Virus record (IMG/VR): IMGVR_UViG_3300029267_006021
Source of the DNA: a virus
Direction: 5' to 3' (one strand)
Length of the DNA stretch: 64,000 nucleotides
The notes under the pieces were generated by a model. That model was not told where the DNA came from and made no database searches. It saw nothing but the letters and a program-made list of their open reading frames with translations. The position numbers and the translations under genes were made by a program. Positions 35,536-63,971 of the stretch are shown here, in pieces. Position 1 is the first letter of the stretch; each line of letters starts with the position of its first letter.

Positions 35536-36960
35536 ATGTCTTCACAGTTAGATGCTGCGCTCAAGTTTGGTCCAGAAACTTTAGCAAGTGATTCAGAAAA
35601 GACTGGATATCTTTGGGCTACTTATTCAGGCCCTACCTGGTACGTGAACCCAGATGATTCGAATGCTTATGCAACGATTAATGAAGCATCTGCTGAAGCT
35701 GACGCCACACTTGAATCTAATAAACCAATCATTATTTTACTAGCTCCTGGTAAAACTCATACTTTAGTTGACGAAAGTTTTAGCCCGGTTGTTAATAGAG
35801 ATACTCGGATACAAGCTGTCAACGCTTCTGATGGAGGTTGGTATCAAGACCCAACCACAACAATTATTGGTAACATCATACAATCTTCGGCTGCAGGACA
35901 ATCAGTAAGGCACAATTTTGAATTAGATAATGTTACTCTTACAGGCTCTATTCATTTTGCTCCTAAATGGAATTCTTTCTTTAACCACTGTGCTTTATCA
36001 GGACCATTTACTAGAGAACATGGATCTGATGGTTCTTTTATACGGATGTTCGATATTAATATGACAACAAATTGGACAGATCTAGATGCAAATGGAGGTG
36101 GAAGCAATGGAACAATTCATCTCTTTAATGCCAATCTAAACCAATTAAATGCTTCGGATATTTTTACCTTGATTGATGGAGCTGATTTAAGAGTTTTCAG
36201 TTGTCGTTTTGCTAGTTATGTTGGAAACGGAGGCCATCTATTTGATCTTTCGGGTGGTTCTAATAGCATCCGAGCATTCAACATTAATACTTTTAAATTG
36301 TCACCGGCAAATGATTTCAGCTTGGCTGTAGATTGTGCTAGCTCATCTTTCTGGGGATATGGAAAAACACTCTTTAATTGCTGGACGAATGGCGCTGGGC
36401 AATTCAATTTTGGCGTTGGTATGCATTGGGGAGATTCTAGTGGACGAATTGACTATTCTACAGATGAAGACGCCAATGAGCCAGAACCTTTAAACCCACC
36501 TAAAAATCATATGGTTTGGTATGATAATAGAACAGGCGAAGTTCTCACATGGAATGGTAGTATTTGGATTACTGGCACGCGTTATCGTAAAGAAATGGCA
36601 ATTGGTATTTCGTCAACTCCAGCTGCCGAACATGATATCGGTTGGAATATCCCCGCTAATTGCCACGCTGTCAAAGGTTCAATGAAAACTCTTAAAACGC
36701 TAACTGGGGCAGGGGGTTGCACAAAAGCAGGTTTAGGAGTCGCAGGCGACTTAGATAAATATAGTGAAACATCTAACCTCTCAGTAGGTAATCGCGTTGG
36801 GAAACTCAATCCTAATCCTTCTCCTGATGGTGGTGGAGATGATTTAAAAATTTATGCCACATCTGGAGGAGGGGTCGCAGCAGGTACTATCGCTGGATCA
36901 GGAACAGAGGACATACGATTAATGGTTTGGTATGAAGCCCCAATAATCATACCTAGTTGA
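35536..36960 (+). CDS. Putative virion fibre/spike protein, paralog B
   Basis: 474 aa, colinear with 20527..21951 (ATYSGPTWYVNPDDS identical). Confidence 0.6.
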   Translation: MSSQLDAALKFGPETLASDSEKTGYLWATYSGPTWYVNPDDSNAYATINEASAEADATLESNKPIIILLAPGKTHTLVDESFSPVVNRDTRIQAVNASDGGWYQDPTTTIIGNIIQSSAAGQSVRHNFELDNVTLTGSIHFAPKWNSFFNHCALSGPFTREHGSDGSFIRMFDINMTTNWTDLDANGGGSNGTIHLFNANLNQLNASDIFTLIDGADLRVFSCRFASYVGNGGHLFDLSGGSNSIRAFNINTFKLSPANDFSLAVDCASSSFWGYGKTLFNCWTNGAGQFNFGVGMHWGDSSGRIDYSTDEDANEPEPLNPPKNHMVWYDNRTGEVLTWNGSIWITGTRYRKEMAIGISSTPAAEHDIGWNIPANCHAVKGSMKTLKTLTGAGGCTKAGLGVAGDLDKYSETSNLSVGNRVGKLNPNPSPDGGGDDLKIYATSGGGVAAGTIAGSGTEDIRLMVWYEAPIIIPS

Positions 36961-37828
36961 TGACTTCTAAGATCTGTTTTGCTCTTTCTTCCCAGGTGTG
37001 ATTTCTATAGGTATGCTCGAAACCTTTTTCTGCTACACTTTTTCTCTGACTCGGATTTAATAAATAATATCTTAAAAGAGAACGCAAAGTCTCCCCTTCA
37101 TCATTTACTGGGTACAATACAATTTCTTCTCCGGGTACAAAATATGGTGTAATATTTCGAGTATTATCTATAAAAGTACAACGTCTTAAAGCTGTTTCAT
37201 TGAAACCTCTGCCAATTGTTTTATTTTCTGTCCCGTCTCTATTTATTTTAGATCTATTAATACATAAGATAATCTTACTTCTTAGATATAAATTAACTAC
37301 TTCTTTTACTGAAACCCACTCATTATTGGAAATTATTTCTATGTTTCCAAAAGATTTTAAACGGGAAGCCCATGAAGCCGGTGTAATTACCTGTACTTTA
37401 AATTCTTCAGACAAAGGTTTGAGCCATGAAAGAACTTCTGGCCTTGGATCAAATAAAGTACCACAGAAAATTATGTCGATGTCTTGATATACTTCTATAG
37501 CTTTATAAACTTCAAGATCTACGCCTAAAGGTAAATGAAATACTGGGCAGTTATAAAATTGTTCTAGAGACTTAATAGCATTTTCTTCCACAGTAAATAT
37601 AATATCTGGAGAACCTTCTGAAAGATTCTCATAAAGCCCCTCAGTATCATAATAAATTAATGTTGGTGATTTTTCTGAATAGGTAGGCAAATCTAATGTA
37701 ATACAATAATCAGGTGAATCTTGAGAATTAACTTCTAGTTTTTTAAATGCTCTATCTAGGCCATTTAAAATAGGTAAACGTCTAAGATTATTACCATAAG
37801 AAACTAAAGAAATTTTTGGAGAAGTCAT
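36953..37828 (-). CDS. Glycosyltransferase (CgeB / GT-B-like)
   Basis: HLPLGVD..Y, DIIFCG, YLRSKIILCIN...RGFNE...FVPGEEI...HTWEERA. Confidence 0.8.
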   Translation of the reverse strand: MTSPKISLVSYGNNLRRLPILNGLDRAFKKLEVNSQDSPDYCITLDLPTYSEKSPTLIYYDTEGLYENLSEGSPDIIFTVEENAIKSLEQFYNCPVFHLPLGVDLEVYKAIEVYQDIDIIFCGTLFDPRPEVLSWLKPLSEEFKVQVITPASWASRLKSFGNIEIISNNEWVSVKEVVNLYLRSKIILCINRSKINRDGTENKTIGRGFNETALRRCTFIDNTRNITPYFVPGEEIVLYPVNDEGETLRSLLRYYLLNPSQRKSVAEKGFEHTYRNHTWEERAKQILEVIN

Positions 37829-38217
37829 TTCTTTTTTTCTTTATCGATCATTTGTTCAAATGATTTTTCACTTCGACCTTCAGACTTAGCATATTTTGAA
37901 GCTTCCTTCCAGGTGTCAAAAATTTCAGGTTTGCCTTCTTTGTTTTCGACATTAGGAACTAATTTTGGTGTTGAGTGGCTTTCTCTTTGTTTTTTATCCA
38001 TTAATTTTGAACGTCGTTGGCGATAATTATTTTCTCTATTTACTTTACTCGGAGGAGGACCAGTGAGCCCATCTTTGATATTAAAATTTGTACAAAAAAT
38101 GCGTTGCATTGGTTCCCCACATTCTGGACAATCATGTTCTCGCTTTTCTTCAGACATCTTATGAAAATGTTCTTCAAGCAAATTGCATTTTCGACAAACA
38201 AATTCATAAATAGGCAT
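37825..38217 (-). CDS. FmdB-family zinc-ribbon protein
   Basis: MPIYEFVCRKC...CPECG. Confidence 0.85.
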   Translation of the reverse strand: MPIYEFVCRKCNLLEEHFHKMSEEKREHDCPECGEPMQRIFCTNFNIKDGLTGPPPSKVNRENNYRQRRSKLMDKKQRESHSTPKLVPNVENKEGKPEIFDTWKEASKYAKSEGRSEKSFEQMIDKEKKK

Positions 38218-38228: not shown

Positions 38229-39368
38229 CTACTCTTCTGTTAAAACACGTTCCATCCAATCTTGAGTTAAAGCAGCCACTAAATGTTTGCACAAAAAGGC
38301 ACGATTTGTTGGACCATCTAACGGGAGTTTATGCCGAACATTAACCCTAGGAAGCGAACCATCATCTTCCCGTTCTCCATATCCGTAACCACGTGTCCAA
38401 GAGCTGCGCGAAGGACCCCAAAATTTGAAGGCCGGACAAGTACATTTCACTGCAATATGAAGATCTGAAAAATCTTTACCCAAAATATCTTCAGGCTTCT
38501 GTGATACACCTTTATACTCTGGAAGTATTTTTATTCGCACTAGATGTCCAGATGGATCACTTCCTTCATGAGGACAAATGACGCGCAGTGTCCAAACCAA
38601 TTTCTTTAAATCTGAACGTACAAACTTAACAGTACAATCTTTTGCTAGAACCTTATTCCGTCTTATTGTCTGATCTACAAGCTCTTTAGCTGTCCAAGCT
38701 ACCCTCGGGACTTTTTGATAAACTTTCTTAACGGGTGGGCCAGATGGTAGAGATTCTATAGGTCTATCTTCCCTAACCTGACGATGTTCTACCCATTTTT
38801 GATAAAGCGCTGGGGTCTCTTTTAAATCTCGATGGAACTCCAGGAGCTCAAATTGAAGATCATTACGTGATTGATCCGGAGTTAAGTCTCGATATCTATC
38901 GGTTCTCCACCACTTCTGCCAATCCCAAAAACGTAAGTAGTCTTTTGTTTTAGTTTCTGTAGGAGTTACAGGTCTAATGATCTTTCGACCAAGGTCACCA
39001 AAACCCCCTTGACCAAAATAACCTGCATCTCCTTGAGCCTTAAGATAACGAAAAATAATTCTACTTACAGCATTTTTATACTTTGGAGTGTCCATAAAAT
39101 AAAAGAAATTATTATAAAATGAAGAAGGGGGCCAACCATCATCTGGGCGCCATTTTTGTGCATTGTCCCACTCAGCCGGAAATCTAACCGGATAGCGGAC
39201 ATTATCCTGGTGTATGCGATTCCAATCAAGCCTAGTTTCTGGCCCAAAATAAATACCGTCATCTATTTTATTAACAGGACTTGTTGAACGGCTCGGAACA
39301 ATTACGAATTCTCGTAGGGCATTTAAACGTTCGCGACGTTCTAATTTATCTTCTCTAGAATTTGACAT
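38229..39368 (-). CDS. SWIM zinc-finger protein
   Basis: KCTCPAFKFWG...LCKHLVA. Start moved to MSNSRE to avoid overlap. Confidence 0.7.
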   Translation of the reverse strand: MSNSREDKLERRERLNALREFVIVPSRSTSPVNKIDDGIYFGPETRLDWNRIHQDNVRYPVRFPAEWDNAQKWRPDDGWPPSSFYNNFFYFMDTPKYKNAVSRIIFRYLKAQGDAGYFGQGGFGDLGRKIIRPVTPTETKTKDYLRFWDWQKWWRTDRYRDLTPDQSRNDLQFELLEFHRDLKETPALYQKWVEHRQVREDRPIESLPSGPPVKKVYQKVPRVAWTAKELVDQTIRRNKVLAKDCTVKFVRSDLKKLVWTLRVICPHEGSDPSGHLVRIKILPEYKGVSQKPEDILGKDFSDLHIAVKCTCPAFKFWGPSRSSWTRGYGYGEREDDGSLPRVNVRHKLPLDGPTNRAFLCKHLVAALTQDWMERVLTEE

Positions 39369-39370
39369 AA

Positions 39371-41848
39371 TCAAACCTTTCGGGGCGGTTTTAAACCCAC
39401 AATATCTTCGCAACCTTGTCTTAAAACACAAGTTGTTGTCCGGATTACATGAAATTTTTGAAGCCATTTATTTTTAAATCGTTTTAAAGATTGATAATAA
39501 CTCGTTATCCAATTTTCTGGATGAGCTCCTGATTCACGGTGCTCAACCGGCAATTGAATAGCATAATTTTTAAACCCTCTAGATAAAGATTCAAGACAAA
39601 TATCGGCACCATAGAGATGAGATTCTATAATACGTTCATCGAATTTTAAGCCTAAATCCTTACGAACAACTAAAAAACACTCGTCAACTGTCTGTGCTTC
39701 TCCCTCATTTTTACTCCAACGCCCTTCTGGAACTTTTAAACCTCCCATTATCTTACCCTCTTGCGTCCACCCAGCGACTCCTATTACCCCCCAATTAGAC
39801 GGGAGATCTTTTATTTTGGATTCAAGCTGTTTAAACCAACCTGGATAAAAATGTAAATCTTGATGACACAATATGACATATTTTGATTTAGCTTGTTGCA
39901 AGGAACGATTATAGGCCGAAGCAATTGACAATTTTTCGACTAAATTAAAAACAGGTAAAAATTCTAATTTTTGAGATAGCTCTCGATTTGGACGAACAAT
40001 ATTATCCATCCACATTTTAGGACGAGTAACACAAGTTACAATCGTAAATGTAGGCTTTGTAACTTTGGGTCCTAAATAAACTTTATGTCTAAAATCTGAT
40101 AAATAAAAATGTTGATCTGGAGAATAATTCCATTTTTTCTGCAAGTATTCAACATCCTTAGATCGTCCACCGCGTCTTATTTTCTTTGAAGTTGCGGCTT
40201 CTTCGTGTATCGCCACAGTACCAGAACTTACAACAGATTTCTTTTTAAGTCTATATGCAACACTGAGACAAAGATCTATGTCTTCATAACCATAATCATA
40301 ACCTGCCGGAAAACCACCAATTTCTTTAAAATCCTCCGAGCGCATTAATAAACAGGCCCCGGTAATAGCTTGAAATTGACGATCTACTTCAGCAAAATTG
40401 CGCAATTTTGGAGACATAAAAAAATGCGAAAGATTAACTGGAATTCTATTGTGTTGAAAAAGAACCCCAAGATGCTGCGGAGTTCCATTCGGATAATATA
40501 AACGTCCTCCCACAATTCCCACCTCTGGATCATTCCGCAGAATGTTAACCATTTCAGTAAGCCAATTCTTCTTTGGAATTACATCATTATTTAAGAATAA
40601 AACATAATCTCCAGAAGCATGCTCTCGAAAAATAGCGTTGTTTAATTCGCCAAAACTACCTAAATTATTTGCACGAGGCGTTATTGTAACTCGAGGGTCT
40701 TCAAGACGTTGTAAAACATCTACAGAATTATCAGTTGAACCATTATCACAAACATGCCAACGCCATTCTGGATAAGTCGTATTCTTACTAATTGCTTCAA
40801 AACACCTTTGTAATAGATCTGCTCGATTAAAGTTAAGAGTTATAATATCAACTAAACCAACGATTTTCTTTGAAAATACTGGTTCTAATTTAGTAGGCTT
40901 ATGAATAATCTTTTTATTAAAAACAATTGTAGGTTCTACCTCTGTAAAAATAGGCACTTGAGGTACAACTCTTTTTGCTGGAGCTGGTGGGGCAGCCCCT
41001 CTCAAACTAAAAGAAATCGAACCATCGATAACTTCTTTATTTATCTTTAAGATTCCCCCATTATGCTCTCTAAGTATACGAACACCAATAGCTTTGCCTG
41101 ATTCACCCTTATCTGAGGAAAGCGTAAGAATAAATTTTTTATTTTGGGCTTTAGTCGGAGATAATGGTAAAATTAATGGGAAGCCATTAGTCACTTGATT
41201 AGCAAATATCGTATTTTTGAAAAGAGAATGTCCTTGATCATCTGATAAATCTATAGATAAGGATCCCTCAATAGAACCATAATTATCTAGATCTAAAGAT
41301 AGACCATCAACAACCCCAAAATCCCCAATAAATTCTTGCTTAATAGCTGAACCTTTTAAAATCGGATAAGTATAAGAGGATCTGCTAGGATGTCCTATTT
41401 TTGGTATTCGACATTTACTTCTAAAAACAACAAATCCAGGTACAGGTTTATTATTTAAATAGCGTTGACCTTGAAAGAGTCTTGAACTCTTCCAAATAAC
41501 GACATTGTTGCTCTGAAAGGAAGCAGGAGCTTCAATTTCAAAAATAAAATCTCTACCTCGCGATTTCTGTAAAGGTTGAAATTCAAAAGGATGGTAAAGA
41601 TTATCTCGTATATTTGCTAAATGCTCAACCAAACGAACAATTTCATAGGCACTTCCTTGCTGCCGCAGTGTAAAAACAAGCTGTCCGACATTAGTGCGAT
41701 TATATGTTCCAAATTTAACTTCAATACAATTTAAATTATCCATCCGACAATGAAAAGTTTGTCCAATTTTGACTCCGGCTATAAGTTCTTCACATAAACT
41801 TTCAGAGCCCGAAATTTGACAATCGAGCATTGCTTTATAAGATGTCAT
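39371..41848 (-). CDS. Multidomain glycosyltransferase (two N-terminal beta domains, GT2 and a second GT2-like domain)
   Basis: CDNGSTD, FLNND, AITGACLL, EDIDLC. Second domain LCHQD...TVDEC...HLYGADICL. Confidence 0.85.
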   Translation of the reverse strand: MTSYKAMLDCQISGSESLCEELIAGVKIGQTFHCRMDNLNCIEVKFGTYNRTNVGQLVFTLRQQGSAYEIVRLVEHLANIRDNLYHPFEFQPLQKSRGRDFIFEIEAPASFQSNNVVIWKSSRLFQGQRYLNNKPVPGFVVFRSKCRIPKIGHPSRSSYTYPILKGSAIKQEFIGDFGVVDGLSLDLDNYGSIEGSLSIDLSDDQGHSLFKNTIFANQVTNGFPLILPLSPTKAQNKKFILTLSSDKGESGKAIGVRILREHNGGILKINKEVIDGSISFSLRGAAPPAPAKRVVPQVPIFTEVEPTIVFNKKIIHKPTKLEPVFSKKIVGLVDIITLNFNRADLLQRCFEAISKNTTYPEWRWHVCDNGSTDNSVDVLQRLEDPRVTITPRANNLGSFGELNNAIFREHASGDYVLFLNNDVIPKKNWLTEMVNILRNDPEVGIVGGRLYYPNGTPQHLGVLFQHNRIPVNLSHFFMSPKLRNFAEVDRQFQAITGACLLMRSEDFKEIGGFPAGYDYGYEDIDLCLSVAYRLKKKSVVSSGTVAIHEEAATSKKIRRGGRSKDVEYLQKKWNYSPDQHFYLSDFRHKVYLGPKVTKPTFTIVTCVTRPKMWMDNIVRPNRELSQKLEFLPVFNLVEKLSIASAYNRSLQQAKSKYVILCHQDLHFYPGWFKQLESKIKDLPSNWGVIGVAGWTQEGKIMGGLKVPEGRWSKNEGEAQTVDECFLVVRKDLGLKFDERIIESHLYGADICLESLSRGFKNYAIQLPVEHRESGAHPENWITSYYQSLKRFKNKWLQKFHVIRTTTCVLRQGCEDIVGLKPPRKV

Positions 41849-42065
41849 CTAGTCAATCCGTTTATACTGGCAAAAAATCACTGACCTATTTTGCTTTTTA
41901 ACTAACTCAGGAAATTCCTTCTGGGCCATCCTCCTCATTTCCTTCCTAAACAAAGAGATTTCTTCTTTCGTGAAGTTTTTTGATTAGCAAATAAATTTTA
42001 GTCTTCACAGATATTTACCAACTAATCCAATTGATTATACAAAATTAGTTAATTATGTACTGATG

Positions 42066-42809: not shown

Positions 42810-42853
42810 GGAAGGTCCTTTCAATCTAAATTTAAATCTAATTAACAAAACGC

Positions 42854-43512: not shown

Positions 43513-43737
43513 TTAGCTCCAAACATCAAGCCGCTTTTTAGCCAAAGTCAGAAGATGATCAGCCTTTTTCATTCTCTCAATAGAAATTTCTCTCTGTTCT
43601 TCGTTTAAATCCTGCGCTAAATGCGATTCAAGAGATAGAAAAGAAACCGCACTAGCAATGAACAAAATAAGATCCCCTAGCCCCATAAATTCAATTTCTT
43701 CCTCAGTTGTTTCAAAAACAATTGGGCGTTCTTCCAT
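43513..43737 (-). CDS. Hypothetical protein
   Basis: AAGGA RBS before MEERPIV. Confidence 0.6.
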   Translation of the reverse strand: MEERPIVFETTEEEIEFMGLGDLILFIASAVSFLSLESHLAQDLNEEQREISIERMKKADHLLTLAKKRLDVWS

Positions 43738-43748
43738 TTGAATTCCTT

Positions 43749-50717: not shown

Positions 50718-50951
50718 CTAAAAACCCTTCTTCTTTAAGACTTCAAGTATCTTCAAAAAGCTCTTCATTTCAATAATATCAGCAACTTCTAAAGTTATTC
50801 CAAATTCACTCTCAATAGTACTCATAATTTCTAAATGCCGCATTGAGTCCCAACTAGGAGTTTTTTGTAAAGAAACAGATTCATCAACTTGATCTGCGGA
50901 TAAATCAAAAATATCAGACAAAATTTTCTTGATTTGTTCTTCTAACATCAA
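50718..50951 (-). CDS. Acyl carrier protein
   Basis: WDSMRHL phosphopantetheine site, IESEFGI. Confidence 0.9.
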   Translation of the reverse strand: MMLEEQIKKILSDIFDLSADQVDESVSLQKTPSWDSMRHLEIMSTIESEFGITLEVADIIEMKSFLKILEVLKKKGF

Positions 50952-55119: not shown

Positions 55120-55975
55120 TTTTTAATTCTCGTTTTTCTTTACAAGTCCAATCTTGACAATTACGACAAATTTCTGGAACTTTTGACCATTGTTCCAAAA
55201 TATGATATTTTGCAAAGTCATGTACTTGTTTTGACCAAATTTCTTTAAGGGGCGTAGTATTAATATTTGAAAATACTGTGCGCCCATCCCAATCATTTAC
55301 ACAAAACGGAGTTCTGCCATCCCAATAAATGCCCAAAGTATCAAGAAGAGAAGGGCAAGAATAGCGATCAATTTCAGGTTGGTCGACTTCAACCATATCT
55401 ATCCACTGAGCAGGCTCTTTTATAAAAACACTAACCTCTCGCTGTCCCCAATAATCTGCAAAGAGTTTCTTTTCTTGTTCATTTTCAGCCATTGAAATCA
55501 ATTGAACAGAAACCTTTAAGTCTTTGGGCTTTATTTTTAAAAATTGATCAACATTATATAGAACCTTATTAAAATCTCCTCCAATTCGGATCTTTTTATA
55601 GGTTTCTTCAGTTGCGGCATCAATCCCAATATAAATTTCAGTGAGCCCTGCATCAATCAAAGATTTGGAAGTCTCTGGATCTAAAGCATTTCCATTAGTA
55701 TTAATTAAGTGATGTTTTAAACCTAAATATCTTCCAAATCGTATATATTCAGGTAGTCTATTTTTAATTATTAAAGGCTCCCCTAAAAAACAATACCATA
55801 AACGGATATGAGTATTAAAATCGGCAATTTGTTCTAAAATATTTAACATAAGTTCTTTTTTCATATTACCTAATTTACGCTTCGTTGTTCTTCGACCGCA
55901 CATCTTGCATTCAAGTTGGCAGTGGGCAGTTGTTTCAACAACAATATTTCTTGGATAACTCAAATCAACAATCAT
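55100..55975 (-). CDS. Radical SAM protein with SPASM/Twitch domain
   Basis: CQLECKMC, GEP, C...FCVND...CRNC. Confidence 0.9.
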   Translation of the reverse strand: MIVDLSYPRNIVVETTAHCQLECKMCGRRTTKRKLGNMKKELMLNILEQIADFNTHIRLWYCFLGEPLIIKNRLPEYIRFGRYLGLKHHLINTNGNALDPETSKSLIDAGLTEIYIGIDAATEETYKKIRIGGDFNKVLYNVDQFLKIKPKDLKVSVQLISMAENEQEKKLFADYWGQREVSVFIKEPAQWIDMVEVDQPEIDRYSCPSLLDTLGIYWDGRTPFCVNDWDGRTVFSNINTTPLKEIWSKQVHDFAKYHILEQWSKVPEICRNCQDWTCKEKRELKNVPEDL

Positions 55976-55977
55976 CT

Positions 55978-57081
55978 TTAATTCATCCTTTCATAACATG
56001 AAATTAAATTTTTGAGCATAAATTCCTTACCATACTTTTTGTAGCGGTCTCGAATAGAGATATAACGTTCTTGAAGATCTTTAAGATTCTCGATCGCATA
56101 TAACAAAGTGTGTATTATCTTCTTTTGATCTAAAGGCGTTCTCAATAAATGTTCTTTATGTTTTAACAAATTTTGAGTTTCTGGGGAATCAAAAATAATA
56201 ACGACTGCCCCGGAATAAAGTGCTTGAACATTTGTTCCAGCGAAACCTGAATCATGTGTTGTCATCGAATAAATAATATTATGTTCTTTAATTAACTGAG
56301 CAAAATCTCTTTGTGAGAGTTTTTTACTTATAAATGTACAATATTGAGAGATCTTTAATCTTTTTGTTAGATCTCTCATTTTAATAAGATAAGGCATCCC
56401 ATCTTGAACAGATTGACCAACCACTAGTGTTACATGCACATTAGTATATTTTCGAAGTAGACTTGGGATTGATCTAATTAGAAATTCTTGATTATAATGC
56501 GGAACCATAGAACGGGGCGAAAGAATTTTAGGTTCTAAAGAAACTTCACGTTGTTTTTCATAAAATGAAAGGTCAATCAAAGGTCGAAACATTACATATT
56601 TATTAGAAAGTTGTACACCGTAGAATTTTTCAAAGACCGGAACCATATGCGCCATACCATGCAAAAAATAATCAATAGTTTTAATACAAAAAGACTCATA
56701 ATATTTTGATTTTTTTGTTGGCCTTTTTATAGTTTGTGAACTCCAAGGCATAATGCATGTAGGCAATTTAAAAGTCTCTTTTGACAACCAAGTAGGAATA
56801 CAAGAATAAGTTAAGGAATGCCCATGAACTAAATTAGGCTTTTCAATTTTAAAAACTGTAGCTAAAAAATTACGCAATTTCGGAATATTGAAGGAAGATG
56901 CCCCATGATAAGATCTATAAGGATAGTGGTAAACCGGAATATGTTTAGAAGTTACACTCTGATGCTTAGGCATATAACTTATTAAACATTGTTTATAGCC
57001 TAATACATCCAAGGATTGTACTACATCTCCCAAATGTACAGAATGTGCTCCGCCGATATGACAAATCTTAGGCTTTTGCAT
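55978..57081 (-). CDS. GT4-like glycosyltransferase
   Basis: SVH..., KPNLVHGH, ILSPRSM..HYN, QALYSG. Confidence 0.75.
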   Translation of the reverse strand: MQKPKICHIGGAHSVHLGDVVQSLDVLGYKQCLISYMPKHQSVTSKHIPVYHYPYRSYHGASSFNIPKLRNFLATVFKIEKPNLVHGHSLTYSCIPTWLSKETFKLPTCIMPWSSQTIKRPTKKSKYYESFCIKTIDYFLHGMAHMVPVFEKFYGVQLSNKYVMFRPLIDLSFYEKQREVSLEPKILSPRSMVPHYNQEFLIRSIPSLLRKYTNVHVTLVVGQSVQDGMPYLIKMRDLTKRLKISQYCTFISKKLSQRDFAQLIKEHNIIYSMTTHDSGFAGTNVQALYSGAVVIIFDSPETQNLLKHKEHLLRTPLDQKKIIHTLLYAIENLKDLQERYISIRDRYKKYGKEFMLKNLISCYERMN

Positions 57082-57083: not shown

Positions 57084-57653
57084 TTAAATCTTCTGTAAAA
57101 AATATTGGATACCTATAAATTCAATTAGTTTCACGTGACCAGATTGAATAAATTCATCTACTGCACGGATAGGTCCTTCAAAATAAGGTTTTTTAATGTA
57201 GTCATCTCCAGTTATAAAACCTCCAGGCTTAACCTTTAAATAACAAAGATCTAAATCTTTTTTAACAAAAGCATATTCATGATTTCCATCAATATAAACC
57301 CAATCAAAATAATTATCTGGAAAACTAGATAGCGTTTTATCTGAATAGTCTCGATGTACCTTAACAATTTCTTTTTGAATTAGAGAATTGAATCTAACAA
57401 GAACATCTTGATACATTTTATCTAAATCCTTTTGTCCGAAAACCTTTCTTCTCTGGTTCGTCTCTTGGTGTAAAGGTGTGTGATTCTGAAAAACCCAGGG
57501 GTCTATTAAGTGTAATTTCTTAGGCTGGGTCAATGATAAAATCAATTGAGACCCTTGACCATAAAGAACACCAAGCTCTGCGCAAACACTATTTTTTGGT
57601 AGCTTTTTAAATAAAATTCTTCTCTGCTCACTATGATATAATTTTTTCGCCAT
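57084..57653 (-). CDS. SAM methyltransferase (Methyltransf_24-like)
   Basis: AELGV..G, IDPW, YIDGNH.Y, GGFITGDDY. Confidence 0.9.
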   Translation of the reverse strand: MAKKLYHSEQRRILFKKLPKNSVCAELGVLYGQGSQLILSLTQPKKLHLIDPWVFQNHTPLHQETNQRRKVFGQKDLDKMYQDVLVRFNSLIQKEIVKVHRDYSDKTLSSFPDNYFDWVYIDGNHEYAFVKKDLDLCYLKVKPGGFITGDDYIKKPYFEGPIRAVDEFIQSGHVKLIEFIGIQYFLQKI

Positions 57654-58374
57654 AAGCTAATAAGCCTTTCTTACTTTGATTATAGGCAACAACCACATTT
57701 TCAAAATAATGTTTGTGTAAAAGAAGATTAAGAGATTTTCTTGAATAATAAAACAAATGGTTAGGGATATCTATAGTAAACTCATTAGCATCCACAGAGG
57801 GTACTGAAAGAGATATTACACCTTCCTTTCCTAAGATACGATAGACTTCTTCAAGAAATTTATTTGGATTACCTAAATGCTCTAAAAGTTGATGAAAAAT
57901 TATAATATCGAACTCGCCATCTTTAAATTTAAAATCGAAAATAGTTCCTTTTTTAACATTTAAAGCATAAACTGTTTTACAATAATTCAAATATCCATCA
58001 TGTAGGTCTAAACCCAAACAGTCATAACCTAAATTTACAAATCTCTTCAAGAAAGACCCCGAATAGCAACCAATCTCAAGAACTTTACCCTTAGGTTTTA
58101 AATTAGAAAATTGTGATAAAAAATTAAAGTATTCGGGGTAAACATTTTTTTCTCTAAATTCTGTATCATTTTTAATCAAATTAAAGGATTTATTTTTTCG
58201 GGCATAATGTTGAACTAAAAATTCTCCTGTAGGTAAAGGTTGGGCAAAATAGGTTTCGCATTCTTGACAAAAGAAAATTGAAAAGGAACCTTGATTCACT
58301 ATCTTCATTCTTTTTTTAGAATGTTTTGGATTAATGGCTGTTGCAGAATCTTTCTCACAGATGGGACAAATCAT
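57631..58374 (-). CDS. SAM methyltransferase with N-terminal zinc ribbon
   Basis: CPIC...CQEC, LEIGCYSG, LLEH. Confidence 0.88.
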   Translation of the reverse strand: MICPICEKDSATAINPKHSKKRMKIVNQGSFSIFFCQECETYFAQPLPTGEFLVQHYARKNKSFNLIKNDTEFREKNVYPEYFNFLSQFSNLKPKGKVLEIGCYSGSFLKRFVNLGYDCLGLDLHDGYLNYCKTVYALNVKKGTIFDFKFKDGEFDIIIFHQLLEHLGNPNKFLEEVYRILGKEGVISLSVPSVDANEFTIDIPNHLFYYSRKSLNLLLHKHYFENVVVAYNQSKKGLLAYGEKIIS

Positions 58375-61100
58375 GGTCTTTTCCAAAATTGATTGTAACC
58401 TTCACCCATCCAATATTCCCATTTAGAAGGTAAAGCTGTACAAACACCATCTATAGAACCTGGATCTTTTATAGTGTCTTTGAAATACTGATTAAAAATA
58501 GATTTAGTTAATTCAGGTTTCCAAGAAAATTTATGAGCATTTATATTTAATTCTTCAATCCAAGTGGCATAAGGTTGTTTCTTTACTTTTTTATCTGTGT
58601 TATATACATCGTCTTTAATCATTGGGTTAAAAGTCATTGGGTTCATTGAACCTATCCGCATTCTAGGAAAACCCCATTTTCTAGGATTTTCACCCAAAGC
58701 TTGGATAAAACTATTAATACCATAGCATTTTCCGCACTGCCCACAATTTGGGAAACCAAGCATACAACTTCTTTGCCATTTCATTGAATCTGGATATCTT
58801 TTAATTAACAAAGTTTGCATTCCGTAATGAGCGAGTCCCCAAAATGGACAGTTTATTTCATAACCCGTTGCTTTAGAAATACTATCAAAATGAAAAACTG
58901 AACTATTTGTACGAATCGGTGTATTGTCACGAACCCAAACTTTTGAATCTGGAGTATTCAAAGCAGTTAAAATTGTATTAGAACCATAAGCATGAGCAAG
59001 AGGCAAAGCAAAAAGCCACCAAGGAATAATTTTATAACCATTTCTCACAAAATCTGTTTTAATATAGAGTGAAGAAATATTATTTTGTTTATAAAAACCT
59101 ACCATTGCTTTTTTGCGTTCTGCCCAAACCTCTTCACCTCGAGATACAGCAATATATTGATTACCTACTATAAAACTCTTAAGCGGAAATCCAAGTTCCT
59201 TAACTAATAATGACAAAAGTAATCCATCCTTGCCCATACCATTTGAACATAAAATAGGTCCTGTATTCTTAACTTCTTCTGCTTCCACAATTTTTTTAGC
59301 AGACACTTTAACTGGCGATTTAGTTTTTACTAAACCATAAGAATTTGAAGCATGATTCAAACGCACATGGTCATTAATACAATCAACCTCTTTTTGAGTT
59401 AATTCATCAAACTCAATTGGAATATTATTCCAAGCAAAATGTTCTGACATTATAATCCCACACATAAAATTTGCTAAATGGCGTGGAGTATGAATAACTT
59501 TTTCAGTATAAACTATAGTTAAATTTTTTCGGTTCATATGTTTTAAAAAATGAGGCCATAAAAAAGTAATGTGTTTATCACAAATATTAGTCTTAATCTT
59601 CATCAGAGTCTCCTTTGCTTTTTGAGAAATAAATAAATTTTCACTAACTAAACTCTTACAACGTTTAAGGCGGATCCAAACTTCTCTTGGAATATGTTTT
59701 GATAAATCAATTTTATGTTTAACAAAAGGATAGTGACACTTTCTCATTAATTTGCCACGAGTATTAGAAATATTATTTAACCCATTCGAATCAAAACCCT
59801 TCAACCAATTTTTTGAAGTTAGTAAAGAAACTTTTAGTTTTCGTTTAACAATAGTCTTAAGAGTATGAAAAATCCAACTATCAATAGAAAATCGACGATC
59901 TATCAAAGGTAACCTTTTCATTAAATCTGTACGGATAGCCATATTTAAACCAGTATTCCCCTTACCTTTAAAAAGAACAGTAATATCTGTAGCAATATCA
60001 TAAAAAGGCCCTAATTGTGCTTGAACCCAATCTGGTTTTTGTTGCTTGAATAGATCATAGGTTTCTTTCAATCTAAAAGGCTGAGAATAACAATCAGCAG
60101 CTTGCAATAAAAAACAAAGAGAACTATTACTTGCCTGTTGAGCCAACTGATACCATTTCCGTGATAAAGGCTGCCAATTTTTAAGACTATTATACTCTAA
60201 TCTCTGACAACGTATTTTTGCGAAGGCTTCTCTATAGTCTTCTATTTGTTCTCTACCAAATGAAAATTCTTCTTCTTCTATAATTAATAATTCCCAATCG
60301 AAATTTATATTCTTTTGACGAACTAAACTCTCTAAAGCGAGCCATGCAATATGTTTCCCTCTAAAAATTGGAAGAGCAACTGTTAATTCTATCTTCGATT
60401 TCTTTTTGGATCTTCTTTTTCTTGCTTCTTGCTTAGCTATGCCATAACCATTTAGAGCTTCTTGAAAATTACTACCCCGAGAAAGAGAATGGGGAAGAGA
60501 GCGATATAAATAAAGAGGCTTTGGTATATGCAATGGGGTTGCTACTTCCTCTAATTTTAAAATTAGATCTTTATCTACTGCCCCTTTAAGTTTTGTATTT
60601 AAACCTGGAGTTTTTAGATAAATAGATCTTCGGAAGGTTTGTAGAGCACTAATGCAATCTACTTCTAAACTAGTTTTCCCTTTAGGTAATGCTCGACTCC
60701 ATCCAGGATTTTGTTTTCTTAATTCAGAATCACAAACGAAAAAATTGGTATAAACAAAACCTGCATTTGGGTGCTCTCTATAGAACTTAAGGACTTCTTC
60801 AACACAAGTAGAGGCTAAACCGTCATCTGAGCCTAAAAAACAAACTATGTCATTTTTAGATTGCAAGATCAACTGATGAAGCGAAGCAGCACATCCTAAA
60901 TTTTGACTATTAAAACTTAGATGAATTTTTGGATGGTTTGCATAATCTTGAAGTATAGCCCGTGAATGATCTGTACTATTATCATCTACAATATAAATTT
61001 CCCAATCTTGGGAGGTCTGTTGAAAAATTGAGTCAATACATCTCCTTAAAAAGCGTCCTTTATTATAATTAGGAATTAATATTGAAATTTTTTCAATCAT
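58371..61100 (-). CDS. Fusion of GT2, a second GT-like domain and a PP-loop ATPase-like domain
   Basis: IPNYN, VDDNSTD, LGSDD. QAADCYS. SNGMGKDG...RSC...CGQCGKC. Confidence 0.75.
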   Translation of the reverse strand: MIEKISILIPNYNKGRFLRRCIDSIFQQTSQDWEIYIVDDNSTDHSRAILQDYANHPKIHLSFNSQNLGCAASLHQLILQSKNDIVCFLGSDDGLASTCVEEVLKFYREHPNAGFVYTNFFVCDSELRKQNPGWSRALPKGKTSLEVDCISALQTFRRSIYLKTPGLNTKLKGAVDKDLILKLEEVATPLHIPKPLYLYRSLPHSLSRGSNFQEALNGYGIAKQEARKRRSKKKSKIELTVALPIFRGKHIAWLALESLVRQKNINFDWELLIIEEEEFSFGREQIEDYREAFAKIRCQRLEYNSLKNWQPLSRKWYQLAQQASNSSLCFLLQAADCYSQPFRLKETYDLFKQQKPDWVQAQLGPFYDIATDITVLFKGKGNTGLNMAIRTDLMKRLPLIDRRFSIDSWIFHTLKTIVKRKLKVSLLTSKNWLKGFDSNGLNNISNTRGKLMRKCHYPFVKHKIDLSKHIPREVWIRLKRCKSLVSENLFISQKAKETLMKIKTNICDKHITFLWPHFLKHMNRKNLTIVYTEKVIHTPRHLANFMCGIIMSEHFAWNNIPIEFDELTQKEVDCINDHVRLNHASNSYGLVKTKSPVKVSAKKIVEAEEVKNTGPILCSNGMGKDGLLLSLLVKELGFPLKSFIVGNQYIAVSRGEEVWAERKKAMVGFYKQNNISSLYIKTDFVRNGYKIIPWWLFALPLAHAYGSNTILTALNTPDSKVWVRDNTPIRTNSSVFHFDSISKATGYEINCPFWGLAHYGMQTLLIKRYPDSMKWQRSCMLGFPNCGQCGKCYGINSFIQALGENPRKWGFPRMRIGSMNPMTFNPMIKDDVYNTDKKVKKQPYATWIEELNINAHKFSWKPELTKSIFNQYFKDTIKDPGSIDGVCTALPSKWEYWMGEGYNQFWKRP

Positions 61101-61974
61101 TTTTAAAGGATCTCAAAGCAGAAACCAGAGCAATCGCAGGCTTTGCGTCATCAATACTGAAACCTTTACCTTCCAAAATTTCTTGATAGCATACAGTATG
61201 TAAAGGCTCTAGCCCTTTAGAAAGATCCAAAACATAGTCATCAATCATAAAAACTCGTCGAGCAAATTCGTCCTCTTCTAAATCTTTTGAATCAAGTGAT
61301 AAAGACCAGTTAACTTTTGCATGTTCTAAATCCAAAAAACCAGAAACCTTTGCAGGAGAATACTCTGAAATCAAATATGACTTAACAGACCCAAAAAACC
61401 AAAGTACAAGATCAAAAAGATGAATACCAATATTAGTTACTAAATCTCCAGATCTTATCGAGTCGCCTTTCCATGAAGTATGATACCAAGGACCTCTACG
61501 AGTAATATAATCAATTTTTACTATAGCGTGTTCTGAATTTGAAGACTCAATTATCTTTTTTAACTTTAATACTTCAGGATGATATCTCAATTGTAAGATC
61601 GCATAGATTCTTTTGTTAAAGCGTGCTTCTAGCTCTTGTAATGGGTCTAAGTTCCAGGGGTTAATAGTCAAAGGTTTCTCACAAATAGCGTTTGCTCCCA
61701 AACGCAAAGCTATCCGACAATGGGCATCATGCAAATAATTAGGAGTACAAATACTAATATAGTCTACACCTTCTCCTTTAAGACGGAGTTTTTCTAAATG
61801 TCTATCAAATCTCTCGATCTCAGTAAAAAAGCGAACATCAGAAAAGTAACTATCCAAAACACCTACAGAATCATGCGGATCACAAGCAGCAACCAAAGTA
61901 TGTCCAGTATCTTTAATTGCTTTTAAATGCCGAGGAGCAATATAACCAGCAGCTCCTAGTAAAGCAAATCTCAT
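61093..61974 (-). CDS. wbpB: UDP-GlcNAcA 3-dehydrogenase (WbpB/WlbA-like)
   Basis: GAAGYIAPRHLKAIK, TPNYLHDAH, ICEKP, WKGD...NIGIH. Confidence 0.85.
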   Translation of the reverse strand: MRFALLGAAGYIAPRHLKAIKDTGHTLVAACDPHDSVGVLDSYFSDVRFFTEIERFDRHLEKLRLKGEGVDYISICTPNYLHDAHCRIALRLGANAICEKPLTINPWNLDPLQELEARFNKRIYAILQLRYHPEVLKLKKIIESSNSEHAIVKIDYITRRGPWYHTSWKGDSIRSGDLVTNIGIHLFDLVLWFFGSVKSYLISEYSPAKVSGFLDLEHAKVNWSLSLDSKDLEEDEFARRVFMIDDYVLDLSKGLEPLHTVCYQEILEGKGFSIDDAKPAIALVSALRSFKND

Positions 61975-62537
61975 TTTTGGACAAGCTCTCCAGAAACAAG
62001 ATGATACTCTCTACCGCATAAGCAACGAACATTTGACGTTATTAAATTAAGAGAATTACCACATTTACAAACCCAACCTCTATCTATAGCCGGATTCCCA
62101 TAAAACAACTTAAAATTGGGGAGATCTTGAGTAACAACACTTCCAGCTCCAACAAATGAATATTTACCAATCTTACGGGGACAAATAATCGTTGAATTAG
62201 CACCTAAGGTTGCTCCCTTACTGATGACAGTTTTTTCATAATTTTTATTTTTGGGAAAACGGCTTCGAGGACGAAGAACATTTGTGAAAACTACACTTGG
62301 GCCACAAAAAACATCATCTTCCAAGAGAATTCCAGCAAAGATTGAAACATTATTTTGTATCTTACAATTATCCCCAATAATAACCTTCTCTCCTATAAAT
62401 ACATTTTGACCTAAAGTACAATTTGACCCAATTTTAACATCTCTAGAAATATGAGAAAAATGCCAAATCTTTGTATCTGAACCAATAGAGGTATTTGAAT
62501 CAATAATAGCCGAAGAATGCGTATAAAATTTAGGCAT
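61971..62537 (-). CDS. wbpD: WbpD/WlbB-like N-acetyltransferase
   Basis: KIWHFSH, LGQNV, KIQNNVS, GPSVVFTNV..PRS, GWVCKCG. Confidence 0.85.
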   Translation of the reverse strand: MPKFYTHSSAIIDSNTSIGSDTKIWHFSHISRDVKIGSNCTLGQNVFIGEKVIIGDNCKIQNNVSIFAGILLEDDVFCGPSVVFTNVLRPRSRFPKNKNYEKTVISKGATLGANSTIICPRKIGKYSFVGAGSVVTQDLPNFKLFYGNPAIDRGWVCKCGNSLNLITSNVRCLCGREYHLVSGELVQK

Positions 62538-63645
62538 CAAAAAAATCCTTAATCGTTCTAACAACTTTATAAATTTGTCTTTCTGAGATGCCAGCAAACA
62601 AAGGTAAGGAAAGAACTTCTTGAGATACTCTTTCAGACTCAGGCAAACTACCTACACTATAAGTATAATTAGAAAAAATCTTTTGAAGATGTAAAGGTTG
62701 GGGATAATAAATTGCACAGCCTATCCCTTTTTCTCTCAAAAATTGAATTAAAGCAGGGCGTTTCTGAACCCTAATAGTAAAAAGAGCCCAAGATGACTTA
62801 AGATAATCTTCTGGAAATTTAGGAAGAACTATCTTTTCATTTAAATTAAAAGAGGAAAAAATCTCCAAATATTTTTTAGCTGCTTGTTCTCGACGCTCTC
62901 TCCAAAGATCTACATAGTCTATTTTTATAGAAAGTAAGGCTGCTTGAAGGGCATCTAATCTAAAATTCCCTCCCATTTGACTAAAAGTAAGAGAACCAAT
63001 AGACCTTTGCTGTCTCATTGCTAAGATTTTCTCTAGCAATTCTAAAGAATTTACGCTAATGAGACCCCCATCTCCAAAACCCCCAAGAGGCTTGGTTGGG
63101 AAAAAACTAAAACAACCTAAAGAACCGAAGGTACCAACTTTTCTGTCATTGATTGTTGCCCCAAAAGCCTGTGCAGCATCTTCAATAATAAAGATATTAT
63201 GTCTATTGGAAATCTTTAAAATTTCTTCCAAATTAATAGGCAAACCATAAAGATGTACAGGAATAACTGCCTTTGTTTTGGAAGTAATTGCCGCTTCAAA
63301 ACTCTCAACAGAAATATTAAATGTTTCAGAATTTATATCTACAAAAACTGGTTTAGCTCCAACCCAACAAATCGCAGATGCTGTGGCAATAAAAGTAAAA
63401 GAGGGTAAAATAACTTCATCTCCGGGCCCAATACCTAGAGACTTTAGAGCAAGTATTAGAGCATCTGACCCGCTTGAAACACCTACTGTATGTTTAGAAC
63501 CTAAAAACTTAGAACATTTTGTCTCAAAATCAGTAACTTGGGCTCCCAATATAAATTGATTAGAACTCAAAATCTCTTGAAAAGATTCTGTTAAAGATGA
63601 AGTTAAAGGGGCATTTTGAAAAGATAAATCAAATAAAGGTATCAT
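62530..63645 (-). CDS. DegT-family aminotransferase (WbpE/WlbC-like)
   Basis: EDAAQAFGA, SFFPTKPLGGFGDGG. Adjacent to wbpD/wbpB. Confidence 0.88.
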   Translation of the reverse strand: MIPLFDLSFQNAPLTSSLTESFQEILSSNQFILGAQVTDFETKCSKFLGSKHTVGVSSGSDALILALKSLGIGPGDEVILPSFTFIATASAICWVGAKPVFVDINSETFNISVESFEAAITSKTKAVIPVHLYGLPINLEEILKISNRHNIFIIEDAAQAFGATINDRKVGTFGSLGCFSFFPTKPLGGFGDGGLISVNSLELLEKILAMRQQRSIGSLTFSQMGGNFRLDALQAALLSIKIDYVDLWRERREQAAKKYLEIFSSFNLNEKIVLPKFPEDYLKSSWALFTIRVQKRPALIQFLREKGIGCAIYYPQPLHLQKIFSNYTYSVGSLPESERVSQEVLSLPLFAGISERQIYKVVRTIKDFFDA

Positions 63646-63971
63646 TAACCGATCTCCAATTTATTTAACCTCTCATAGTCGAATCTTCTACCAATAATCT
63701 TATTATCTCTAAAAATCAAGTGATAAGGAGGATTCTTAACATAATTTTTTAAAATTAAAGGCACATCATAGGGAAATTGGATTAATTTCTTAGAGTATAA
63801 TTCCTTAATTAAATCGGAAGCATCCTTATGCAAAACTTCTTTAAGATAAGAAAGATGATCCAGATTAAGATGCATCTTCCTTCTAAAAAGTCTCCATTTT
63901 GAACGATGAACTCTATAAACAAAATGTAGATCAGATTTAACGTCTACTGAAATAAAATAATAACCAGCCAT
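63645..63971 (-). CDS. Hypothetical protein
   Basis: TAATG-coupled to the aminotransferase. Confidence 0.6.
   Translation of the reverse strand: MAGYYFISVDVKSDLHFVYRVHRSKWRLFRRKMHLNLDHLSYLKEVLHKDASDLIKELYSKKLIQFPYDVPLILKNYVKNPPYHLIFRDNKIIGRRFDYERLNKLEIG

Follow-up and report, generated by a model that had tools for sequence, protein, structure and literature searches.

The IMG/VR virus record IMGVR_UViG_3300029267_006021 was analyzed over a stretch of 64,000 nt, hereafter the window, whose open reading frame (ORF) map places nearly all genes on the minus strand. Its right-hand part, minus-strand positions 36953 to 64000, is a glycan locus containing 18 sugar-making or sugar-tailoring genes and five glycosyltransferase (GT) genes with seven GT domains. 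Enzyme assignments were made by Pfam, NCBIfam, and PDB sequence searches of the window ORFs. Twenty-two consecutive genes, running from 63971 down to 43513 (20.4 kb), have no intergenic gap larger than 27 nt and frequently overlap by 4 to 28 nt, and this stretch is one long operon that starts beyond the window. Scans for sigma-70 promoters and terminators within the operon gave hits at chance level, and it contains no site for a phage promoter-like motif, ATARTYYACTAAT, found elsewhere in the window. A second gene group (41848 to 36953), which has its own promoter-like site, encodes an 825-aa GT, a 412-aa phage protein, a zinc-ribbon protein, and a CgeB-like GT. A preliminary description of this DNA had reported about 20 tightly coupled sugar-pathway genes and five GT genes, partly interleaved among virion genes. 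All five GT genes are present, and the number of sugar and tailoring genes is slightly lower, at 18, in an operon that runs off the window. The tight coupling holds from 63971 to 43513, with gaps of at most 27 nt and mostly with overlaps of 4 to 28 nt, and so does the interleaving, with the conserved 412-aa and zinc-ribbon genes lying between GT genes. The features of the locus, from the window end inward, are the following.

62530–63645, minus: WbpE/QdtB-type sugar 3-aminotransferase of the DegT family (Pfam PF01041, E 1e-108; PDB QdtB, E 1e-84, and WbpE 3nu7, E 9e-68)
61971–62597, minus: WbpD/WlbB-type 3-N-acetyltransferase with hexapeptide repeats (PDB 3mqg, E 1.3e-55; Pfam Hexapep)
61093–61974, minus: WbpB-type UDP-GlcNAcA 3-dehydrogenase, Gfo/Idh/MocA (PDB WbpB 3o9z, E 4e-83, full length)
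58371–61100, minus: 909-aa fusion of two GT-A domains and a MurL/PP-loop-like C-terminal domain (Pfam GT2 at residues 6–161)
57631–58386, minus: S-adenosylmethionine (SAM) methyltransferase (Pfam Methyltransf_23/11)
57084–57653, minus: Methyltransf_24/TylF-like O-methyltransferase (Pfam PF13578, E 3e-15)
55978–57081, minus: 367-aa GT4 (GT-B) glycosyltransferase (Pfam Glycos_transf_1, E 1.6e-7)
55100–55975, minus: radical-SAM/SPASM enzyme (Pfam PF04055 and PF13186)
54508–55119, minus: SAM methyltransferase, cassette member, kept beside WbqC in bacterial loci (Pfam)
53750–54511, minus: WbqC-family protein, predicted ATP-dependent amide ligase (Pfam PF08889, E 3e-67)
52518–53753, minus: class I/II pyridoxal phosphate aminotransferase (Pfam PF00155, E 2e-29; 46% identical homolog in bacterial locus L007)
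50948–52525, minus: acyl-AMP (acyl-CoA/acyl carrier protein) ligase (Pfam AMP-binding, E 1e-83)
50718–50951, minus: 77-aa acyl carrier protein (ACP; Pfam PP-binding, 23.6 bits against a cutoff of 20.8)
49998–50714, minus: FabG-type 3-ketoacyl reductase (Pfam adh_short; NCBIfam PRK08217, E 8e-67)
49320–49985, minus: NeuD/PglD/VioB-type amino-sugar N-acyltransferase, hexapeptide (TIGR03570, 167.5 bits against a cutoff of 160.8)
48555–49292, minus: SAM methyltransferase (Pfam)
47648–48568, minus: GH130-like protein, cassette member (weak Pfam and NCBIfam GH130 matches)
46620–47660, minus: RmlB-type NDP-hexose 4,6-dehydratase (TIGR01181, E 2e-102, 343 bits against a cutoff of 365)
45508–46623, minus: PseC-like sugar 4-aminotransferase of the DegT family (Pfam, E 2e-113; TIGR03588, E 3e-99, below cutoff)
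44510–45511, minus: WecB-type UDP-HexNAc 2-epimerase (Pfam Epimerase_2, E 9e-49; TIGR00236, 154 bits against a cutoff of 210)
43749–44513, minus: 254-aa GT-A glycosyltransferase (Pfam Glyco_transf_7C, E 4.5e-8)
43513–43776, minus: 87-aa last ORF of the operon, one hydrophobic segment (Kyte-Doolittle scan; no Pfam family)
42034–42056, minus: promoter-like site before the 825-aa GT sub-operon (phage motif with one mismatch, plus TGTATAAT)
39371–41848, minus: 825-aa GT with two carbohydrate-binding module (CBM)/lectin-like beta-sandwiches, a linker, and two GT-A domains (Pfam; match to K4CP)
38229–39467, minus: 412-aa conserved phage protein with a SWIM-like zinc motif (28% identity to "tail protein" gp336 of Tunturiibacter phage Tunturi_5)
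37825–38292, minus: FmdB-type zinc-ribbon protein, kept in relatives (Pfam PF09723; 35% identical homolog near a GT2 gene in relative G006)
36953–37828, minus: 291-aa CgeB-like GT (DUF3880 and Glyco_trans_1_2; Pfam, E 2e-18 and 5e-6)
35536–36960, plus: 474-aa Ser/Thr/Gly-rich protein, convergent with the GT genes (no family or phage match)

Predicted sugar chemistry and glycosyltransferases

The first three genes (module A, 63.6 to 61.1 kb) constitute, as shown at the level of enzyme families, a WbpB/WbpE/WbpD set for a 2,3-diacetamido uronic acid. In the Wbp/Wlb pathway this trio turns UDP-GlcNAcA into UDP-GlcNAc3NAcA, and the phage enzymes would convert UDP-GlcNAc-uronic acid into a UDP-2,3-diacetamido-2,3-dideoxy-hexuronic acid. 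The three adjacent homologs match strongly those of the WbpA/B/E/D/I (Wlb) pathway to UDP-ManNAc3NAcA in Pseudomonas aeruginosa O5 and Bordetella. WbpA, the UDP-GlcNAc 6-dehydrogenase, is not in the window, and the candidate for WbpI differs from the Wbp pathway in being a WecB-type epimerase encoded 17 kb away, which scores 154 bits, below the family cutoff of 210.

Judged from its family matches, module B (55 to 44.5 kb) should produce an NDP-4-amino-4,6-dideoxyhexose through the RmlB-type dehydratase and the PseC-like aminotransferase. The 4-amino group would then be acylated by an ACP-dependent route comprising the acyl-AMP ligase, the carrier protein, the FabG reductase, and the NeuD/PglD-type N-acyltransferase, and the combination of ligase, carrier protein, FabG, and NeuD-type enzyme suggests N-acylation by a 3-hydroxyacyl group. 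A second acylation route for the same amine may be provided by the WbqC ligase with its BshC-like fold. No match to WbqC was found in the PDB sequence search; the structures nearest to its AlphaFold (AF2) model (pLDDT 78) are BshC (Z 11.3, with 225 of 253 residues aligned) and class I LysRS (Z 10.2), with pantothenate synthetase and MshC ranking below both. This fold fits a predicted ATP-dependent ligase that joins a carboxylate or an amino acid to a sugar amine. For the uncharacterized WbqC family (PF08889) as such, a nucleotide-binding fold like that of BshC or class I aminoacyl-tRNA synthetases is thereby predicted (Z 11.3).

Further tailoring of the sugars would be performed by the four methyltransferases, the radical-SAM enzyme, and the 2-epimerase. 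The chemistry is partly resolved in that the family calls leave the exact steps of the methyltransferases, the radical-SAM enzyme, the GH130-like protein, and the WecB-type epimerase unassigned. At the level of enzyme families, the locus does contain phage-encoded pathways for rare, N-acylated, and probably methylated sugars, as the preliminary description had proposed. The GH130-like gene is conserved in bacterial WbqC cassettes, where its homologs are 33 to 52% identical, and a GH130-type gene is also reported for the glycan gene set of cyanophage S-SCSM2R (PMC12801897).

The five GT genes encode proteins of 909 aa (two GT-A domains), 367 aa (GT4), 254 aa (GT-A), 825 aa (two GT-A domains), and 291 aa (CgeB-like). 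The first GT domain of the 909-aa protein matches residues 375 to 568 of the chondroitin polymerase K4CP (E 8e-24 in the PDB sequence search) and is most like the glucuronyl-transferase half of that enzyme. Its second GT-A domain and the C-terminal motifs are visible in alignment, and its C-terminal ~400 aa contain a PP-loop-like motif and a Cys cluster; an Atlas model of this region resembles the adenylating epimerases of the MurL family (TM 0.5–0.78). From these matches and the model, it is reasonable to suppose that the 909-aa protein may be a uronic-acid transferase coupled to carboxylate activation. Among 5.8 billion proteins, the kin of the 909-aa protein (58371–61100) comprise one close relative (68% identity) and one partial one. 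The 825-aa GT has four relatives at 46 to 52% identity and likewise matches K4CP in the PDB sequence search. The relatives of the two large GTs (46 to 68% identity) come from Logan or JGI contigs. An AF2 model of residues 1 to 330 of the 825-aa GT shows, according to fold searches, two lectin/CBM-like beta-sandwiches whose best structural matches include phage baseplate or tail-tip modules (Z 12–13) as well as many CBMs. As a hint at a virion acceptor these modules are suggestive rather than specific, since CBMs, lectins, and phage modules match them equally, and they pinpoint no acceptor. Searches with the 909-aa and 825-aa GTs found no match in viral_contigs, and the phage-database matches to the large GTs cover only the GT2 domain, on short, doubtful "phage" records. 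Searching the phage database by tblastn with the CgeB-like GT and the 474-aa protein also gave no match; in the PDB sequence search the CgeB-like GT had no match, and the 254-aa GT had marginal matches only.

Phage context and membrane machinery

The glycan locus lies directly upstream of a block consisting of an 83-aa gene followed by connector, minor tail, terminator, and sheath genes, of which the named structural genes are as follows.

32081–33457, minus: head-tail connector, interrupted by an intein (counterpart of Tunturi_5 gp319)
16330–17658: minor tail protein (counterpart of the Tunturi_5 "minor tail protein")
12045–13505: tail terminator (counterpart of the Tunturi_5 tail terminator)
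8739–11504, minus: 921-aa tail sheath (homologous to sheaths of huge phages)

Tunturiibacter phage Tunturi_5 (308 kb) and an uncultured 485-kb phage have sheaths that are 37% identical to the 921-aa protein over ~90% of its length; Bacillus phage G is more remotely related in this protein. A profile of the minor tail protein retrieved 112 relatives from IMG/VR, on contigs of up to 618 kb, and the order connector, minor tail, terminator, zinc ribbon, and sheath is conserved among them. The sheath, terminator, minor tail, and connector genes are thus syntenic with those of huge phages, and gene content places the element, as a large phage, in a huge-phage clade, which agrees with the earlier assignment to a jumbo phage. 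A 194,034-bp contig is on record for the 909-aa and WbqC proteins (with four contigs per protein cluster), and an 87,557-bp JGI contig for the 825-aa protein; 194 kb is borderline for what is usually called a "jumbo" phage. Among the IMG/VR relatives, the closest (L167, 76% identity) stops at the connector gene, short of the glycan locus. A megablast search of the glycan region against the phage database gave no match, and neither viral_contigs nor metagenome_contigs contains an exact copy of a 44-mer taken from the window end. The host could not be inferred from WbqC, which is at most 46% identical to any species genome found.

Several observations concern this phage part of the window in its own right. 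The connector homolog is 27 to 48% identical to Tunturi_5 gp319 and to relatives, its intein matches Pfam Intein_splicing (E 4e-15, residues ~227–350), and three relatives (L178, L183, and L187) align to it over the first 217 to 224 residues only. Near the window start are two TnpB-type (OrfB_IS605/Cas12f-like) genes (1095–2471, minus; 5113–6564, plus), the second with TGTATAAT extended −10 boxes close by at ~4961 and ~5064, and two tRNA genes (956–1028 and 2504–2578; Gln-TTG and Glu-TTC). A 1.6-kb minus-strand region (27239–28819) has no ORF of at least 80 aa and is densely filled with ORFs of 48 to 78 aa, several with paired CxxC zinc-ribbon motifs. Two small acidic proteins (33488–33862 and 33909–34154, minus) have a common N-terminal leader, MDP(V/I)KELKKIAAE(L/I).

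Composition and gene order indicate that the glycan genes are resident in the phage. An assembly chimera, in which a bacterial polysaccharide locus was misjoined to phage DNA, might be suggested by the bacterial counterparts of module B at 39 to 61% identity and by the slightly lower GC content of the glycan part (0.32–0.33, compared with 0.35–0.37), but we find it scarcely credible. Tetranucleotide correlations between glycan and tail segments are 0.72 to 0.82, compared with 0.81 to 0.89 within each group and ~0 to 0.6 against unrelated loci, and strand and GC skew are unchanged, so that the composition speaks against the chimeric junction that the preliminary description had envisaged as a possibility. 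No bacterial homolog of the glycan genes exceeds 61% identity, conserved phage genes (those for the 412-aa and zinc-ribbon proteins) and the phage motif lie between GT genes, the 909-aa, WbqC, and 825-aa proteins are on record on the contigs mentioned above, and relatives have GT islands at the same position.

Those relatives show how the junction varies. GT genes of the window are adjacent to structural genes and interleaved with conserved phage genes, and relatives keep GTs at the same junction. Two of them (G028 and G038) have giant ORFs there, 1333 and 1256 aa long, that give four to five GT2 matches, and three others (G013, G010, and G008) have ORFs of 1376 to 1810 aa with GT2 domains 11 to 20 kb upstream of the minor tail gene. 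Upstream of the connector in G001, whose sheath is 47% identical, are an RmlB-like gene, two GT2 genes, a methyltransferase, a GT9-like gene, a Capsule_synth gene, and a GDP-mannose dehydratase, and no multi-pass protein was found in this set.

The motif ATARTYYACTAAT occurs at 16 sites in the window, compared with 1.9 expected, and none of 100 shuffles reached 16. Nearly all of them lie between genes, a short way ahead of a gene, and those preceded include the sheath and other tail-module genes. Examples are 11564–11576(−), 16316, 18755, 20494, 21999, 35462, 42854(−), and 42893(+). Near the glycan locus are the sites at 42854(−) and 42893(+), which precede the genes at 42848 and 42914, and one with a single mismatch at 42044(−), before the 825-aa GT. 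Conservation of the motif does not extend to relative G001. At 17665–18462 the window has a phage sigma-factor-like gene. The preliminary description had spoken of late-promoter genes; a phage-specific motif common to the tail genes does exist, but late timing is overstated, as it was deduced from the motif accompanying tail genes.

Nucleotide-sugar pathway genes and GTs are found together in one locus here, as they are in Wzx/Wzy-dependent loci. Membrane components were sought with Pfam, which was applied to every ORF of 36.9 to 64 kb and to the larger ORFs elsewhere in the window, and with a Kyte-Doolittle scan of all ORFs of at least 50 aa in the 64 kb. None of the ORFs scanned with Pfam matched Wzx, Wzy, ABC-2, Bac_transf, or Glycos_transf_4 families. 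Within the 64-kb window there is thus no initiating phosphoglycosyl transferase (WbaP/PglC-type Bac_transf or WecA-type Glycos_transf_4), no Polysacc_synt match representing a Wzx flippase or Wzy polymerase, and neither a match to an ABC/ABC-2 membrane family nor a multi-pass protein that could represent a Wzm/Wzt or KpsM/KpsT transporter. No real gene has more than two hydrophobic segments in the Kyte-Doolittle scan; the case with two is the adenylating ligase, a member of a soluble enzyme family, and the 87-aa last ORF of the operon (43513–43776) has a single one. The two scans agree in upholding the earlier report that Wzx, Wzy, Wzm/Wzt, an initiating transferase, and multi-pass proteins are missing from the window. 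A Wzx-type flippase (PF01943) was likewise found in none of 37 long related huge-phage records, compared with 13 of 14 control genomes.

Bacterial WbqC loci served as a control, with WbqC homologs used to collect 80 metagenome and 80 genome loci, many of which have a cassette in common with the window. A multi-pass protein is encoded in 17 of 25 metagenome loci of at least 12 kb (threshold of four Kyte-Doolittle segments) and in 34 of 61 genome loci (threshold of six), and the membrane proteins of these cassettes are usually within 10 kb. In one 150-kb metagenome contig (L007), 10 window genes have counterparts at 39 to 57% identity: the class I aminotransferase, ligase, ACP, FabG, NeuD-type acyltransferase, GH130-like protein, methyltransferase, WbqC, dehydratase, and DegT enzyme. 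There the cassette is followed by a UDP-glucose dehydrogenase, epimerases, and a Wzx-type flippase (Pfam). A radical-SAM homolog adjoins WbqC in 26 of the 80 bacterial genome loci. Because the control loci give a signal in the same scan and the window does not, module B would have arrived without membrane partners; by homology it is a bacterial surface-polysaccharide cassette minus those partners, at least within the window. WbqC cassettes are also often flanked by proteins of 600 to 1100 aa with 8 to 13 predicted membrane segments (L007:10738–12675 and L005:7980–11309; similarly in L006, L018, L056, L074, and L079). The two that were tested belong to no Pfam family and are candidate GT-C-type transferases or polymerases for the cassette sugar.

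Candidate acceptors and comparison with known systems

Since the export parts are absent from the window, the chain probably decorates something inside the infected cell. The reading we favor, tentatively and at a little short of an even chance, is that the glycan is assembled in the cytoplasm on a phage-made acceptor, probably a virion protein. The seven soluble GT domains would join the sugars there, among them those of two double-GT enzymes resembling chondroitin polymerase, one with lectin-like modules and the other with a MurL-like adenylating domain. This assembly would take place late in infection, with one or more virion proteins as the likeliest phage-made acceptor, and would give the particle a coat of an unusual glycan that is acidic, acylated, and methylated. 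This cytoplasmic virion target was also the one proposed in the preliminary description; the position of the locus and the arrangement in relatives make it the most plausible, although no sequence feature names the acceptor. Indirect evidence for it also comes from the lack of a Wzx-type flippase in the 37 relatives, from the motif that part of the locus shares with tail genes, and from the architecture of the 825-aa GT, and precedents exist in mycobacteriophages and giant viruses. The 474-aa Ser/Thr/Gly-rich proteins are a pair of paralogs (20527–21951, minus, and 35536–36960, plus) that are 44% identical over their full length and have no family or phage-database match. The copy in the tail module stands behind the phage motif, and its partner converges with the CgeB-like GT gene; both are candidate fiber proteins or glycan acceptors. 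A more elaborate form of the idea, which we regard as possible but doubtful, is a mimivirus-style coat. Polymerase-like multi-domain GTs would assemble a cytoplasmic heteropolysaccharide of acylated, methylated diamino-uronic and 4-amino-6-deoxy sugars on the phage's own neck or tail fiber proteins, such as the 474-aa paralogs, and the GT islands at the connector junction would constitute a lineage-wide, fast-changing virion "serotype" locus.

Several points weigh against glycosylation of a virion protein. No virion protein in the window, which includes tail proteins but not the capsid gene, shows Ser/Thr C-terminal tags or sequon enrichment. DegT was found in 2 of 37 relatives and GT2 in 9 of 37; the glycan system is therefore not core to the clade, and the module junction with its GT genes could simply be a place where accessory genes accumulate. 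Hydrophobicity was scanned by a crude method, and the operon promoter with ~4 kb of further genes lies beyond base 64000, where a transporter would alter the reading; as the polymerase-like double GTs would fit an ABC-transporter pathway, this 5′ part of the operon matters. Finally, the published reading of a jumbo-cyanophage cluster is modification of the host surface (PMC7824862).

Applied to this phage, such host remodeling would mean that the phage supplies nucleotide sugars along with peripheral GTs that work on undecaprenyl-linked intermediates of the host, and that the host initiating transferase, flippase, and ligase or polymerase export an altered O-antigen, capsule, or S-layer, which could block superinfection or grazing. 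We consider this a serious rival, though less likely than the favored reading. Module B clearly derives from bacterial Wzx-type surface-polysaccharide loci, and remodeling is the published reading for jumbo cyanophage clusters of 15 to 24 genes (PMC7824862, PMC12801897). O-antigen GTs are normally soluble or peripheral, so GTs without membrane segments are uninformative on this point, and soluble GTs can act on host undecaprenyl-linked intermediates, so the missing phage flippase is no bar to a host-surface product. However, no membrane step is encoded in the 64 kb and no Wzx in the 37 relatives, though the bacterial source loci have them, and a foreign repeat unit would have to be accepted by the host flippase and ligase. 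Several relatives moreover have their GT genes at the connector-tail junction, a motif of the tail genes recurs in part of the locus, and large multi-domain polymerase-like GTs with lectin-like modules are atypical of Wzx/Wzy repeat-unit assembly.

Two further products can be considered alongside host remodeling. Some of the enzymes (ACP, adenylating ligase, radical-SAM enzyme, class I aminotransferase, and multiple methyltransferases) look like a tailoring set for natural products, and a cluster for a sugar-derived metabolite has been predicted in jumbo cyanophages (PMC7824862). The product might then be an oligosaccharide, either free or linked to lipid, a secondary metabolite bearing sugars, or a modified cytoplasmic protein of host or phage that is not packaged. 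We judge this improbable, as a polymer is the product suggested by seven GT domains, with two double GTs of chondroitin-polymerase type among the enzymes, and the same tailoring cassette lies beside a flippase in bacterial polysaccharide loci. Glycosylation of phage DNA, which the preliminary description had offered as an alternative target and in which the GTs would hypermodify hydroxymethylated bases, appears very improbable. Phage GTs akin to lipopolysaccharide (LPS) and teichoic-acid enzymes do hypermodify DNA, in clusters that can adjoin structural genes (bioRxiv 10.1101/2023.12.21.572611), but in the known systems the operon also encodes a C5-methyltransferase and a TET-like oxidase, and the sugars added are hexose, HexNAc, or heptose (bioRxiv 10.1101/2023.12.21.572611). 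Pfam scans of the window found no cytosine C5-methyltransferase, 5mYOX/TET, thymidylate-synthase-like/dNMP hydroxymethylase, or T4-type GT, and the DNA target accordingly finds no cytosine methylase, TET-like, or hydroxymethylase gene in the window on which to draw. Acylated diamino uronic acids are also unlikely base adducts.

Should the favored reading be correct, with the glycan on the virion, huge environmental phages would join giant eukaryotic viruses and a few mycobacteriophages as bearers of complex virus-made glycan coats, with a bearing on adsorption, escape from recognition by host or predator, and particle stability. The locus would also exemplify a phage stripping the membrane steps from a bacterial surface-polysaccharide locus and rewiring the remainder. 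Whatever the target, it is a compact source of rare-sugar enzymes (the Wbp module, ACP-dependent N-acylation, the WbqC BshC-like ligase, and the GT-MurL-like fusion), and the uncharacterized cassette of WbqC, GH130-like, and radical-SAM proteins gains a testable biochemical hypothesis.

Among known systems, the clusters of 6 to 33 genes in the Megavirinae, with multi-domain GTs, have been shown chemically to provide rare bacterial-type amino sugars for virion fibrils (PMC10117803). The giant-virus clusters (Mimivirus R132-L143 and those of Moumouvirus, Megavirus, and Tupanvirus; PMC10117803) resemble the phage locus in their rare amino sugars, methyltransferases, and multi-domain GTs; their sugars are viosamine, bacillosamine, and QuiNAc, and their GTs have three to four GT domains (PMC10117803). 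In both the giant viruses and this phage, the content varies among relatives and no bacterial-type export step is needed. The giant viruses, in contrast, infect amoebae and their glycans were measured on fibrils, whereas the tailed phage is known from its genes alone, and the phage differs from them in its Wbp-type diamino uronic acid, ACP-dependent acylation, and WbqC ligase.

Jumbo cyanophages encode 15 to 24 sugar and GT genes, read as modifying host capsule or LPS against superinfection (PMC7824862, PMC12801897); examples are the 15-gene cluster of P-SSM2, S-SCSM1, and S-SCSM2R, with 22 genes including 13 GTs (PMC7824862, PMC12801897). Like this phage, they are large myoviruses with nucleotide-sugar genes and several GT families that vary between relatives and whose target is unproven. 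The phage differs from them in its structural genes, which are like those of phage G and Tunturi_5 whereas the cyanophages are T4-like, and in its glycan locus, which abuts the connector-tail module. The unusual complexity for a bacteriophage that the preliminary description had claimed is overstated, given the 15 to 24 such genes in jumbo cyanophages (PMC7824862, PMC12801897). The enzyme set differs from that of the cyanophages as well: across 50,697 phage records, DegT matches are few and WbqC is essentially absent.

Mycobacteriophage virions (Che8, Corndog, and Myrna) are reportedly glycosylated by small phage GT cassettes (Freeman et al. 2023, as cited in PMC12619734). Soluble phage GTs, with or without a methyltransferase, are reported to be encoded next to structural genes and to place glycan on capsid and tail-tube proteins in the cytoplasm. 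Those cassettes comprise two to four genes and use host nucleotide sugars, in contrast to the ~25 genes here, which include whole sugar pathways; C-terminal acceptor tags of the mycobacteriophage type were seen on none of the window tail proteins. The bacterial WbqC cassettes (L007 and loci of Nitrospinota, Planctomycetota, and other metagenome-assembled genomes) have up to 10 genes in common with the phage at 39 to 57% identity. Those loci carry a flippase and multi-pass proteins, whereas the phage window lacks them and has the cassette fused in one operon with Wbp genes and polymerase-like GTs. By analogy with the cyanophage, Megavirinae, mycobacteriophage, and DNA-modifying precedents, the kind of system is therefore already known. 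What is new here is the clade, the size of the locus, its chemistry (the Wbp module, the ACP branch, and WbqC), the GT-MurL-like fusion, and the derivation from a flippase-bearing bacterial cassette.

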